Part shown: positions 49,172-62,531 of the stretch, in pieces | Position numbering within the stretch: position 1 is the stretch's first letter | How the letters are laid out: each line of letters begins with the position of its first letter | DNA from: an uncultured Chloroflexia bacterium | GTDB lineage: Bacteria > Chloroflexota > Limnocylindria > Limnocylindrales > CSP1-4 | DNA length: 64,000 nt | Assembly: GCA_963725745.1 (NCBI GenBank) | Contig: CAVRZS010000007.1 | Span: 25,595 to 89,594, forward strand | Reading direction: 5' to 3' | Made by a program: the position numbers and the translations under genes | The notes under the pieces: generated by a model | The model's database searches: none | What the model was told of the DNA's origin: nothing | Seen by the model: only the letters and a program-made list of their open reading frames with translations

Positions 49172-49268
49172 GGCCGCAGGATACCCGTGCGGGTCCCTGC
49201 TATCCTCTGCCGCGGCGCCGCGACGGCGCCGCGACCCTGGCTCTCGTGAGGGCTCCGTGGGTCATCGC

Positions 49269-49305
49269 TCCGGCGTAGCTCAGTGGTAGAGCGGGTGACT
49301 GTTAA
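49269..49305 (+). pseudogene. 5' half of tRNA-Asn (positions 1-37, ends in the anticodon loop); left att-type repeat
   Basis: TCCGGCGTAGCTCAGTGGTAGAGCGGGTGACTGTTAA is identical to 62457-62493. With the 3 preceding nt the identity is 40 nt (49266-49305 = 62454-62493). No 3' half follows. Confidence 0.9.
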
Positions 49306-49688
49306 GCCTCCCGCACCTGCCATAGCGCTATCGAGCATGCCGAGCGCCTCCCCGTGATGCGGAACAAGCAGAGTTATGTGCTCTATTCGCGCGGCATGGA
49401 ACGCCCCGGTCGCCCGCGGGCCCTGCCGATCGGTCGGGCGCGGTGCGGAGCCGGGGCCGCGAACGGGCCAGCGATCGCCGTCATCCCGTCGCTGCGGTGA
49501 CTCGACGCACCCCGAACTGCTGCGATGTCGCTCGGAACTGACTGTCGGCGTAGTACTTTCGTACGCCTCGCCACCGTTTCGCGGAGTGCACTCGATTGAT
49601 CCGGGCCACCGCCGCCAGTTCTGGTCGTTCCGCCCGGCGCGAGATCTCGTCCACCGCGCGCGGAGTCGGGCCCAGGCTCAGGATTGCG

Positions 49689-50678
49689 ATGGCTGCTCAT
49701 CGGCCAGTTACCCCACTCGGGTACCGGCCCGACCTGGATGGCTTGCGAGCGGTCGCCGTCGGCCTCGTGATCCTCGATCACGCCGAGCTGCCCCGCTGGA
49801 ACGCGGCGGGCATGACCGGCGTCACGATGTTCTTCGTGCTCTCGGGCTACCTGATCACCTCGCTCCTGCGCGAGGAGCAGGCACGAACCCACCGGATTGG
49901 CCTCGTCGCCTTCTACTCCCGCAGGGCCCTGAGACTGATGCCGGCCTTCGCGGCCGTCGTGACCTTTGTCATCCTCGTCGGGATTGCCGGCGGCTGGCGA
50001 CCTGGCTGGCAGCTGGGCGTCGTCGGCAGCGTCGCCTATGTCCAGAACTGGCTGTACGCGGCCGGCCTCCAGCTGGGTCCGTTGGGTCACACCTGGAGCC
50101 TGTCGATCGAGGAGCAGTTCTACCTGCTGTGGCCGCTCGCACTGATGCTGCTGCCCCTCCGATGGTTGGCGCCGACGATCGCGCTGCTCATCGTGGCAGC
50201 TGTGGCCTGGCGCGCGGCCTTCACCTACCCGATGGACCTGGGACCGACGATCGGCCACGTCGATGCGCTGGTCGCCGGCGCCGCAGTTGCGATCTGGGGA
50301 CGCCGCCTGCCCCAATGGACCGGCGTTGTCGCACTGTCCGTGGTCCTCGGCTTGGCGTTCACGCCGTTCGCCGGCACGCTGGAGATCGCGGTCGCTGCGA
50401 CCGCCGTCATCATCATGGCTGCGCCGCGTGCGCTCGCGCCCTTGGCGGCTGCGGGAAGGCGATCCTACAGCGCGTATCTCTGGAGTTGGCCCCTGACGAT
50501 GCTCATCGGGGTGTGGGCCCTGCCGGCTACCCTGCTCGCCGCAGAGACCTCCTACCGGTTGGTCGAGCGGCCAGCGCTGCGACTCAAGGGACGCCTGGCC
50601 CGCGGCGCAATCGATGGAGCCGTGGCGCCATCAATCCCAGATCGGGGTACCCAGGACCGGGCCGGCGCGATTGCTTGA
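49689..50678 (+). CDS. Acyltransferase family 3 (OafA/YrhL-like) membrane protein
   Basis: In-frame part of ORF 49596..50678 from MAAHRPV. RPDLDGLRAVAVGLVILDH motif, about 9 TM helices. Confidence 0.85.
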   Translation: MAAHRPVTPLGYRPDLDGLRAVAVGLVILDHAELPRWNAAGMTGVTMFFVLSGYLITSLLREEQARTHRIGLVAFYSRRALRLMPAFAAVVTFVILVGIAGGWRPGWQLGVVGSVAYVQNWLYAAGLQLGPLGHTWSLSIEEQFYLLWPLALMLLPLRWLAPTIALLIVAAVAWRAAFTYPMDLGPTIGHVDALVAGAAVAIWGRRLPQWTGVVALSVVLGLAFTPFAGTLEIAVAATAVIIMAAPRALAPLAAAGRRSYSAYLWSWPLTMLIGVWALPATLLAAETSYRLVERPALRLKGRLARGAIDGAVAPSIPDRGTQDRAGAIA

Positions 50679-50938
50679 TCCGCTAGGCCACCGTCCGGTC
50701 CTCGAAGCCGCCAGGGACGAGCTCCACGACGCGAAGCCGGACGGCTGGTACGTCGGCCCGCCCACGCACGAGGAACACCGCCGTGAGTGGACGCTCTACG
50801 CCTTTGACTCGCGGGAAGCGCCCCAAGGCCGGACGACGGTCGCGGGAGTGGACGGCGGTCGCGCAGTCCGAACTCGAGGTTGTGCGCGAGATGGCGCGCT
50901 GCCTATCGATCATCCGGGAGGGGCGGGTCCTGGAGTAG
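50614..50938 (+). CDS. Small hypothetical protein (paralog of 59232..59477); frame broken near 50822, start uncertain
   Basis: ..ELHDAKPDGWYVGPPTHEEHRREWTLYAFDSREAP / KAGRRSREWTAVAQSELEVVREMARCLSIIREGRVLE-stop after removing one C of a C4 run. Confidence 0.55.
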
Positions 50939-50981
50939 TGGACCGAAACAATCAAGCGTCTTGGGGATTACGCCCCGAGCC

Positions 50982-60998: not shown

Positions 60999-61057
60999 GC
61001 CTCGTCCATAGCGCCAGAGTCGCGGCGCTACGGTCCAGCCTCAAAGGACGCCGGAAA

Positions 61058-61407
61058 CTAGCCCCCGGGGCAGTCGTCCCGTTTGAGGTACGCGTACACC
61101 GAACTAACCGAACGACCGATCGCGCGTGCGATCTGCTTGGGGCTCAGGCCCTCGGCGGCTAGGCGCTGCGCCTCCGCGCACTTGGCCGTCGTGTCTAGTC
61201 CGGCGAGCCGTTCCTTGTTCGCCCGAGCGAAGGTCGGCACCTTCCGGTGCTCAGCGATCGCGGCGTCCCGGGCTTGGAGCGCCTCCTTGAGGTTGGCGAA
61301 CGCCGCGTCCTCAGCCAGACGTGCGTACCGTTGCTCGCGCTCCAACTCGCGGGCGAGCTCCGCCTCGCCCGCTCCAACTCGCGGGCGAGCTCCGCCTCGC
61401 GGCTCAT
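61058..61407 (-). CDS. Small HTH protein downstream of the integrase (Xis/regulator-like); 5' end disrupted by a 32-bp tandem duplication
   Basis: ATG 61407 overlaps the integrase stop (ATGA). After MSREAELARELE the duplication shifts the frame. The HTH-containing frame (..LSPKQIARAIGRSVSSVYAYLKR) is ORF 61058..61345. Confidence 0.65.
61338..61400. repeat. Near-perfect tandem duplication, period 32 bp
   Basis: 61338-61368 is identical to 61370-61400 (31 of 31). Unit CGCTCCAACTCGCGGGCGAGCTCCGCCTCGC. Confidence 0.95.
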
Positions 61408-62333
61408 CGCTGGCGGTCCTTGAACGACCGATACGCGGCTAGGGCGCGCTCATCCGCTGCAGATGCGCCGTACCGACGGACCATCTGGGGGCTGCGCCAG
61501 CCGAAGATCCGCATGACGTCGGACTCCTGCACGCCACCGGCCATCGCCTCGTGGGCCGCGGTGTGCCGGAAGAGGTGCGGGTGTAGCCCGTCTAGACCGG
61601 CTTCCTCGCCGCGCCGCTTGACGACCTGGAAGATCCCGGTCGACGTCAGCCGGCCCTTCTTGCCCAGCCACAACCACGGCAAGTCGGCGTGTGGATGCTC
61701 AGGCCGGGCGCGGAGGATGTACCGGTCCAGCTCCTTGGCCGCTTCCTTGTCGTAGGGCACCGCGCGCGGGCGGCCACCCTTGCCGAGGACGTGAGCGATC
61801 ATGAGGTCCGCGTCGATGTCGTCGAGCCGGAGCCCGGCGATCTCGGCGAGTCGCATGCCGCTGTCGAGGAACAGGCGCAGGATCACGCGGTCACGACGCT
61901 CCGCGAAGCCCGTGCCGGCGGTCACCTTCCAGAGCGCCTTCTTGTCGTCTTCGTCGAGAACCGTGGGCGGTTCCTCGGGCACGTGCGGCGGGTGCATGCG
62001 GACCATCGGACTGGCGGTGATCTCGCCCTCATCCACCAGCCATCGGAAGAACTGCTGCAACGACCGATAGCGGTTGGCCGCTGTCGCCGGGCGGAACTTG
62101 GCGAGCCGGTCTTCGATGAACGCCTCGACGTGCTCGCGCCTGATCGCGGCGACGGTGCGCGGCATCCCGTTCGCCGCCAGGTAGTCGTCGAACTGCGTCA
62201 CGCCGGTCGTATATGACTCGACCGTGGCGGGCGAGCGGTTGCCCGCGCGGAGGGATCGGCCGAAGGCCGCGAGGTTGGCAGCGATATCGCCCGTCGCGGT
62301 ATCCTGCGCCGGGCTGGCTGGTGCTGGTCGCAT
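61404..62333 (-). CDS. Tyrosine recombinase / phage-type integrase
   Basis: In-frame part of ORF 61404..62429 from MRPAPASP. SAM-like N-terminal domain (ATVESYTTGVTQF..). Catalytic region GMRLAEIAGL.., HLFRHTAAH, ..GWRSPQMVRRY. Confidence 0.92.
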   Translation of the reverse strand: MRPAPASPAQDTATGDIAANLAAFGRSLRAGNRSPATVESYTTGVTQFDDYLAANGMPRTVAAIRREHVEAFIEDRLAKFRPATAANRYRSLQQFFRWLVDEGEITASPMVRMHPPHVPEEPPTVLDEDDKKALWKVTAGTGFAERRDRVILRLFLDSGMRLAEIAGLRLDDIDADLMIAHVLGKGGRPRAVPYDKEAAKELDRYILRARPEHPHADLPWLWLGKKGRLTSTGIFQVVKRRGEEAGLDGLHPHLFRHTAAHEAMAGGVQESDVMRIFGWRSPQMVRRYGASAADERALAAYRSFKDRQR

Positions 62334-62456
62334 CGCTAGAACTCCTGATTGCTGGCTTTCCACTAGGTCGCAATCATGTGCTCTAGCAGCGTAGCGGTCA
62401 AGGACCGACCGGCCCAAGACGCAAGTCATGTGCTCGATCTGAGCACGGACTTCCGC

Positions 62457-62531
62457 TCCGGCGTAGCTCAGTGGTAGAGCGGGTGACTGTTAATCACTTG
62501 GTCGTAGGTTCGAATCCTACCGCCGGAGCCA
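62457..62531 (+). tRNA. tRNA-Asn (anticodon GTT), CCA encoded
   Basis: The cloverleaf folds by hand: acceptor TCCGGCG/CGCCGGA, D stem GCTC/GAGC, anticodon stem GGTGA/TCACT, loop CTGTTAA, T stem GTAGG/CCTAC, TTCGAAT loop. Confidence 0.95.

Follow-up and report, generated by a model that had tools for sequence, protein, structure and literature searches.

The stretch analyzed in this study (referred to as the window) consists of 64,000 nucleotides of contig CAVRZS010000007.1 (assembly GCA_963725745.1, positions 25,595 to 89,594) from an uncultured Chloroflexia bacterium. Between a rhodanese gene (48347-49171, minus strand, PF00581) and a tRNA-Asn(GTT) gene, the window contains a 13.2-kb segment with an integrase gene (int) next to the tRNA gene and accessory genes in its interior; this segment is very probably a site-specifically integrated island that carries the 5' half of tRNA-Asn. 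The features that define its ends, including the attachment sites attL and attR and a helix-turn-helix (HTH) gene, are as follows.

49172-49265, plus strand: native intergenic region between the rhodanese gene and tRNA-Asn, that is, the ancestral upstream region of the tRNA (conserved at the empty sites of L082 and L083)
49266-49305, plus strand: attL, the displaced chromosomal 5' part of tRNA-Asn (exact repeat; left-flank collinearity with L082 and L083 up to 49305)
49306-62453, no strand: island body, 13,148 bp (absent at this site from L082 and L083; atypical composition)
61058-61407, minus strand: small coiled-coil and HTH gene, frameshifted (ATGA overlap with the int stop, 61404-61407)
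61404-62333, minus strand: int, a Xer-like tyrosine integrase of 309 amino acids (aa), apparently intact (PF00589, E = 1.3e-25; PF02899; PF13495)
62454-62493, plus strand: attR core, the copy of the repeat on the element side, which forms the front of the intact gene (L082 and L083 align to the right flank from 62454 onward)
62457-62531, plus strand: rebuilt tRNA-Asn(GTT) (ARAGORN; Rfam tRNA score of 75 bits)

The initial annotation of this DNA, made from its letters alone, had described an exact repeat ending in the anticodon loop, the right copy of which lies in a complete tRNA-Asn(GTT) and the left copy of which is followed by unrelated DNA. Both statements were borne out by a repeat search and by reading of the sequence on the one hand, and by ARAGORN, Rfam, and flank comparisons on the other. 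Positions 49266-49305 and 62454-62493 formed a direct repeat with 40 of 40 nt identical, and this repeat was not extendable by a single base on either side. It consisted of a leader of 3 nt (CGC) and bases 1-37 of tRNA-Asn, the last of which closes the 7-nt anticodon loop CTGTTAA. The 37-nt tRNA part occurred only twice in the window when up to 3 mismatches were allowed, and was absent from shuffled sequences. The tRNA-Asn into which the right copy alone continues was the single complete tRNA in the window, and an Rfam scan of positions 48-64 kb reported no RNA other than tRNA. A terminator-like hairpin follows the rebuilt gene (62553-62574), and this hairpin and the downstream sequence were common to L082. 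The configuration corresponds to the Islander definition, in which the element lies between an intact tRNA gene (tDNA) and a partial copy of that tDNA in direct orientation, while the end of the identity block at the last base of the anticodon loop fits the anticodon-loop sublocation class of Williams (2002), as cited by later papers.

An exact look-up of the window rhodanese protein returned no record, and homologues of ~80% identity located on long contigs were used instead. In two of these loci (L082 and L083), ~95 nt separated the rhodanese gene from an intact tRNA-Asn, which corresponds to the empty site (49305 joined to 62494) for which the initial annotation had proposed a search. Window positions 40136-49305 were collinear with L082, the alignment ending exactly at 49305, and positions 62454-62615 aligned to the adjoining segment of L082, the first aligned position being exactly 62454, such that the left and right alignments overlapped on one and the same 40 nt of L082. 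The compositional profile, which the initial annotation had likewise proposed as a check, also set the island apart from the rest of the window: its GC content was 0.684 versus 0.711 and was lower than that of every other window of the same size there, and its tetranucleotide distance was 0.183 versus 0.096 +/- 0.013 for same-size windows, placing it ~6-7 standard deviations out. The interpretation offered in the initial annotation is supported by these results. The Islander configuration filter accepts a 5' fragment upstream or a 3' fragment downstream and an element length of 2-200 kb (PMC4383910); in the present case, the 5' fragment lies upstream at 13.2 kb, the integrase gene is inside, and the site is empty in relatives.

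The bare existence of a truncated tRNA copy might also be explained by a tandem tRNA-Asn array of which the half gene is a remnant, or by a deletion or rearrangement unrelated to the integrase. However, a broken tandem array is excluded by the empty sites, the relatives having a single tRNA-Asn with both flanks collinear and the breakpoints falling at the edges of the repeat. Furthermore, the point of truncation, the anticodon loop, is shared with the other delimited family members described below, and int lies beside the intact copy, as in all of the family loci in which this position was covered (76/76). An origin of this type is extremely improbable.

A tyrosine integrase gene and a translationally coupled small HTH gene had been placed directly inside the right repeat by the initial annotation; the integrase and the ATGA overlap were both recovered, whereas the HTH gene proved to be frameshifted by a 32-bp duplication. 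The int gene, 120 nt inside the right repeat, was contiguous and complete, with AGGAG located 9 nt ahead of its ATG at 62333, and its product (Int) was identical to the database protein P0001. The identical int is present in the sequencing runs ERR11523661 and ERR12983021. A longer form starting from the ATG at 62429 is probably not used because the database form has 309 aa and starts at 62333. Int kept all of the columns that were invariant across 27 homologues, and consisted of an N-terminal SAM-like core-binding domain (from approximately residue 25 of the 309-aa form) and a catalytic domain. In this two-domain fold, it resembled XerC and XerD: the nearest solved structure was XerD (1a0p), and homologues are labelled XerD in JGI annotations. 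Assignment as a XerC/XerD dimer resolvase was rejected, since the scores (142 bits for XerC and 135 bits for XerD) were far below the NCBIfam equivalog cut-offs (335 and 330 bits, respectively), and, in contrast to the housekeeping xerC/xerD locus, int of this family was always found beside a tRNA gene in a variable element. In phage and plasmid collections, the nearest integrases were those of actinophages and assorted others with 26-33% identity, indicating that Int has no characterized close relative.

The duplication in the HTH gene comprises two 31-nt copies (61338-61368 and 61370-61400; 32 nt from start to start). When one copy was removed, a 105-aa protein with a C-terminal HTH (HTH_23) was obtained, and a restart from the TTG at 61345 would yield a 95-aa HTH protein. 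Among the relatives, L008 had an HTH homologue after int with the same ATGA coupling, which was recognized by its reading frames; a tblastn search of the family loci with the repaired HTH protein gave no match at 1e-3.

The region between int and the tRNA, together with the far end of the island, contained the following elements of a putative attachment region, including the promoter of int (P_int).

62372-62401, minus strand: P_int, TTGACC, a 17-nt spacer, and CATGAT (62401 to 62373), together with Site 2 (the only promoter-like site in 62200-62700)
62372-62383, minus strand: Site 2, GAGCACATGATT, overlapping the -10 hexamer of P_int (motif search)
62424-62435, minus strand: Site 1, GAGCACATGACT, 18 nt from the core (motif search)
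62430-62446, minus strand: palindrome GTGCTCGATCTGAGCAC, containing part of the Site 1 region (palindrome at the same position in relatives)
49372-49383, minus strand: Site 3, GAGCACATAACT, on the P' arm, 66 nt from the core (motif search)

The 12-mer GAGCACATGAYT had three matches in the 64-kb window versus 0.2 expected; they were confined to the att arms and were all on the minus (int) strand. The same three-site layout was found in seven other delimited elements of both polarities, with a motif sequence specific to each element and a distance of 59-81 nt between the core and the copy on the far (P') arm. This co-variation suggests that the repeats are element-specific binding sites, putatively for a protein, with Int, the coupled HTH protein, and some other factor as candidates. 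The position of Site 2 over the -10 hexamer of P_int suggests that int is autoregulated. The P_int block, which lies between the tRNA and int and points to int, was conserved across the family, as was the palindromy at the position of Site 1, where the sequence itself differed among relatives.

The following course of integration is very probable. The Xer-like integrase of the element recombined attP with the chromosomal tRNA-Asn(GTT) gene at its anticodon loop, strand exchange presumably occurring inside the loop. The attP site bears the 5' part of the tRNA (-3 to +37), 120 nt upstream of int and pointing away from it. Integration moved the chromosomal 5' half and the native upstream region 13.2 kb off, giving attL, while an intact gene was rebuilt at attR from the 5' half of the element and the 3' half of the chromosome. 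Direct observations in this course are the insertion as compared with the empty sites, its exact junctions, and the arrangement of int and tRNA across the family, including a free circular relative with only a 5' tRNA half in its attP. The three copies of the 12-nt motif, two near int and one on the far arm, probably serve as sites for Int or an accessory protein in the recombination complex and in the autoregulation of int.

To place the island among its relatives, a profile of 27 homologues was used to collect 80 loci (the best 80 of ~3,000 homologues) from species-representative GTDB genomes. These loci were mostly from Limnocylindria and other Chloroflexota, and also from Acidimicrobiales and other Actinomycetota. 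A tRNA gene was located 76-242 nt upstream of int in every one of the 76 loci with sufficient upstream DNA. It was divergent from int, with its 5' end toward int as in the window, in 58 of these, and co-directional, with its 3' end toward int as in the classical arrangement, in the remaining 18; the 5'-facing polarity is a trait of the integrase family. The far end was within the fetched DNA for six divergent elements (2.5-8.5 kb), the distal repeats of which corresponded to tRNA positions 1 to 34-42, and for five co-directional elements (3.8-10.8 kb), the distal repeats of which extended from positions 28-32 to the 3' end. The repeats of both types included the 5' side of the anticodon loop, an overlap that is predicted by a crossover at this point. 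In a neighbor-joining tree, polarity clustered by clade, yet had changed several times, and the tRNA genes for Gly-TCC, Thr-CGT, Lys-TTT, Arg-ACG, and Val-TAC were each occupied in both orientations. In two divergent loci, a 3'-half repeat was present on the other side of the tRNA (L005, 5791-5838; L051, 366-412), such that elements flanked both sides of the gene. Since the layout of the arms was the same in the two polarity classes, the simplest reading of a polarity flip is an inversion of the tRNA-derived core only, relative to the arms; the anticodon stem is symmetric around the loop, and, thus, a flipped core would look much alike to the enzyme.

A third geometry was observed in two more distant loci (L101 and L102; 43% identity), in which a tRNA 3' half, carried by the strand opposite to int and ~60-150 nt upstream of it, had its anticodon end toward int. 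In the integrated state, int would then come to lie at the distal end of the element.

Free forms of related elements were sought among IMG/VR contigs with homologous integrases, several of which lacked a complete tRNA beside int. One of these (L084, IMGVR_UViG_3300042818_000027; Int identity of 57%) was a 9,828-nt contig with a terminal direct repeat of 127 nt, indicating a circular assembly of 9.7 kb. It encoded a capsid protein, a tape-measure-like protein, an HNH endonuclease, and the family integrase; this size is very small for a tailed phage, and L084 may be satellite-like in nature. At ~130 nt upstream of int, its opposite strand carried exactly bases 1-40 of the tRNA-Met gene, followed by unrelated sequence, and tRNA-Met is the gene occupied by the integrated relatives. 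Only 5' tRNA halves were present in L087, L088, and L109, and only 3' halves in L086, L090, L095, L100, L104, L108, and L113. L084, L087, L088, and L109 indicate that free members of the 5' type carry the front half of the tRNA beside int.

The polarity of the window island had initially been regarded as opposite to that of most tRNA islands; this agrees with the literature, in which the geometry is rare, but has precedents in pTN3, Anabaena, and Klebsiella. According to a review (PMC8371274, citing Williams 2002), tRNA-integrating elements of bacteria, with very few exceptions, leave the gene on its original promoter, and the 5'-half arrangement of the pTN3-like archaeal integrases is seldom met in bacteria. 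One close published case is a 10.2-kb element of Anabaena variabilis ATCC 29413, which lies upstream of tRNA-Cys and duplicates its first 38 bp (bioRxiv 10.64898/2025.12.09.693284). Like the window element, it precedes a complete tRNA gene, has a tyrosine recombinase gene in its interior, and is proposed to cross over in the anticodon loop; the Anabaena tRNA-Cys also has a second element on its 3' side, as in L005 and L051. On the other hand, the Anabaena element belongs to another phylum and another tRNA, and its integrase is a 147-aa remnant according to its authors, whereas Int of the window is full length; that report contains neither a family-level analysis nor an attP architecture.

For the pTN3-like integrases of Thermococcales (Cossu et al. 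2017, PMC5495485; PMC8371274), attB is likewise a tRNA 5' half, and the rebuilt tRNA, parted from its original promoter, is said to be expressed from the promoter region of the integrase gene. However, pTN3 is of the archaeal SSV type, in which attP is inside the int open reading frame (ORF), the hallmark of "suicidal" integrases, and int is split on integration, whereas attP of the window element lies 120 nt upstream and int remains intact; the similarity of Int to archaeal XerA was only distant. Islands located upstream of their target tRNA have also been reported in Klebsiella pneumoniae (arg2A-VII and other clade I.d islands), as an exception among the islands surveyed (bioRxiv 10.1101/2020.11.02.365908). 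The sublocation of arg2A-VII is the D-loop and its integrases are gammaproteobacterial and P4-like, in contrast to the anticodon loop in the window, and no close sequence relationship was seen between the Klebsiella-type integrases and the window family, the best phage and plasmid matches being <=33% identical.

The window element also resembles the anticodon-loop class of tRNA-integrating islands and prophages (Williams 2002, as cited by later papers; Islander, PMC4383910): a tyrosine integrase targets a tDNA, the anticodon loop with its symmetric stem bounds the identity block, and the intact gene and a displaced fragment are in direct orientation. Most of the described members of this class carry the 3' part of the tRNA and keep the native promoter, whereas the 5' part is carried by the window element and the majority of its integrase relatives. 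The geometry itself is rare, but already published, and the window island adds a well-delimited member. We did not find a description of the size of the integrase family, its repeated polarity flips, or its attP layout. Islands in tRNA genes are usually sought by a 3' fragment downstream, while this integrase family, which is common among Chloroflexota and Actinomycetota of soil and freshwater, is mostly arranged in the opposite manner; tools and curators that assume the classical layout will set the boundaries of such islands on the wrong side. The matched 5'- and 3'-type relatives on the same tRNAs also offer a natural system for what sets orientation at a symmetric core, and the family as a whole for how an essential tRNA stays expressed after its promoter has been replaced by element DNA.

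Since the DNA upstream of 62457 belongs to the element, the rebuilt tRNA-Asn would have to be transcribed from the element. The tRNA strand of the 123-nt spacer contained no TANNNT hexamer on reading of the sequence, and no position-conserved TANNNT hexamer toward the tRNA was found in 59 family loci. The only recurring candidate in this direction was a mirror of the P_int -10 (TTGCTG, 62349-62354; a 17-nt spacer; AATCAT, 62372-62377), which is located 85 nt upstream of the tRNA and matches the consensus at 7 of 12 positions. For the native upstream region, TATCCT (49201-49206) came out as the best -10 hexamer; it is a match to the consensus only, and its score was no better than that of the mirror candidate. 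A conserved box beside the tRNA was also considered as its promoter and rejected: a related box, CTGACCTGC, occurs at the same place in actinobacterial elements of the 3' type, which keep the native promoter, and this argues against a role as the tRNA promoter. The displaced native upstream region reads through the 5' half toward a co-directional acyltransferase gene (49596-50678), and no terminator-like site was found between attL and this gene. A promoter region shared with int would parallel the report on pTN3.

The start codon of the rhodanese gene (ATG, 49171) is preceded by GTATCCT 7 nt upstream on its strand, which suggests a leaderless mRNA, and a second TATCCT on the opposite strand points to the tRNA; both TATCCT sequences were conserved in L082 and L083 (49169-49208).

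A larger picture, less likely than not, may be sketched tentatively, in which a large and undescribed family of Xer-like anticodon-loop integrases in Chloroflexota and Actinomycetota has flipped its polarity repeatedly with constant arms, and in which the host tRNA of the 5'-type members, often likely to be single-copy, relies on a bidirectional promoter shared with int. If true, the regulation of the element and the supply of the tRNA would be coupled in these members.

Several results weigh against the integration model and its extension to tRNA expression. The tRNA-Asn sequence was identical in the window and both empty-site relatives, such that sequence alone cannot tell which half is element-derived. 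In JGI metagenome contigs, a collection that does not include the source run and probably lacks this organism, the predicted circle junction and the P'-core junction both had 0 matches and a second copy of the window element was not found, a negative result of little weight; the sole find was a 1,080-bp contig from another sequencing run that was 100% identical to the int region. Lambda-type heterobivalent integrases would combine an N-terminal arm-binding domain with arm-type sites in attP; no arm-binding domain was recognizable in Int by domain scans or structure comparison, whereas three direct 12-nt repeats flank the core in arm-like positions. A consensus scan of the window detected no sigma-70-like promoter toward the tRNA, P_int being its only match in 62200-62700, and the best sigma-70-like score toward the tRNA across the 59 loci was 6.81 versus 6.69 for shuffled sequences, compared with 7.92 toward int. 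A consensus scan also missed the native TATCCT at 49201-49206, indicating that promoter scans are weak in this organism of 70% GC. The 58:18 ratio of polarities favors the window's own clade, since it was obtained from the 80 loci most similar to the window integrase.

The interior of the island contained the following genes and insertion sequence (IS).

49596-50678, plus strand: acyltransferase-3 family membrane protein (PF01757, E = 6.6e-25), the first gene downstream of attL
52718-53605, plus strand: SNase-like protein (PF00565, E = 6.9e-10)
54597-55517, minus strand: alpha/beta hydrolase (PF00561, PF12146, PF12697)
55880-56926, plus strand: EamA-type transporter (PF00892, E = 2.1e-28)
56982-57320, minus strand: HicA-like toxin ORF (PF07927, E = 3.1e-7, above the curated cut-off)
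59620-60998, plus strand: insertion sequence of the IS256/Mutator family (transposase, 59730-60959, PF00872, E = 6e-129)

The accessory character previously attributed to this cargo was confirmed by Pfam for the acyltransferase (Acyl_transf_3), SNase, alpha/beta hydrolase, EamA, and IS256/Mutator transposase, and lipoprotein-like ORFs and a duplicated small gene were also present. For the annotation of this genome, the analysis delimits the island exactly, defines its attP, and records both its accessory cargo and its signs of decay. The IS256 element has terminal inverted repeats at 59620-59651 and 60967-60998, with no clean target duplication evident on reading of its ends, and is located directly beyond the HTH gene, where further int-linked genes are found in relatives. 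A small gene (gene "X"; ~70-90 aa, with an AQRSLRSRLGG...GHxCxxCP motif and no Pfam match), which may encode a recombination accessory factor, was present within ~2 kb of int in 34 of the 80 family loci, in both polarity classes (e.g., L004, 11437-11652; L008, 11349-11561; L001, 11322-11537), and was absent from the window island. None of the island ORFs scanned with Pfam and NCBIfam, several of which had no match, encoded virion, conjugation/transfer, or replication functions, the genes by which a prophage, an integrative and conjugative element (ICE), or an actinomycete ICE is recognized.

The IS256 insertion, the frameshifted int-coupled gene, and the loss of the family-conserved gene X indicate that the island is decaying. 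It has the appearance of a cargo island at an early stage of decay, the integration module of which is still essentially intact, and it may no longer move efficiently. These same three features, together with the missing circle junction and the failure to find transfer or replication genes, are what would be expected if the island had integrated as described above, but is now a fixed accessory region that can neither excise nor be transferred. In opposition to this, attL and attR are still identical at 40 of 40 positions, int is full length with all of its invariant residues, P_int and all three repeat sites are intact, a 95-aa HTH product may still be made from the TTG at 61345, and the identical 1,080-bp contig comes from another sequencing run. 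A fixed remnant is only slightly less probable than an island that retains its mobility, and the present mobility of the island is uncertain, being about evenly balanced.

The extent of the element that belongs to the present integrase also needs to be considered. Two pairs of similar segments inside the island (49401-49457 and 58303-58360, 91%; 50700-50926 and 59240-59465, 85%), the smaller sizes of the delimited relatives (2.5-10.8 kb), and the tandem or two-sided occupation of tRNA genes in the family (L005 and L051) would all be consistent with at least two successive insertions at the same tRNA, in which the inner fragment decayed and only the tRNA-proximal part belongs to the present integrase. 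However, no further tRNA-Asn fragment was detected in the window with 3 mismatches allowed, there was no second integrase, and the 58-nt repeat also occurred in L001 and, thus, may be dispersed. The far-arm site (49372-49383) matched the int-side sites, tying both ends to one element. A composite origin is unlikely, and a single island bounded by attL and attR is preferred.

Several minor observations concern the contents of the island and its left flank. The GC-rich repeat of 52-58 nt (76-92% identity) was present three times in the island (49401-49457, 58303-58360, and 55912-55948) and also in L001 (6230-6284); the lack of an Rfam match indicates that it is not a known RNA, and it may be a dispersed repeat similar to repetitive extragenic palindromic (REP) sequences. 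The paralogous small genes at 50614-51141 and 58983-59477 had 71% identity over 48 aa with the motif DAKPDGW.VGP...YAFD.RE and no family assignment; the former of the two may be truncated. Toward its 3' end, the SNase-like gene contains the 9-nt unit CCGGGGCAC eight times in tandem (53495-53593), which gives a collagen-like tripeptide repeat. A 159-aa ORF without a match (57345-57824) adjoins the HicA-like ORF and could be its candidate partner. In the left flank, positions 45632-47989 encode a 785-aa M11/reprolysin-like metalloprotease with an Fn3 domain and an 18-nt repeat tract (47269-47450); this gene was syntenic in relatives and, therefore, lies outside the island.

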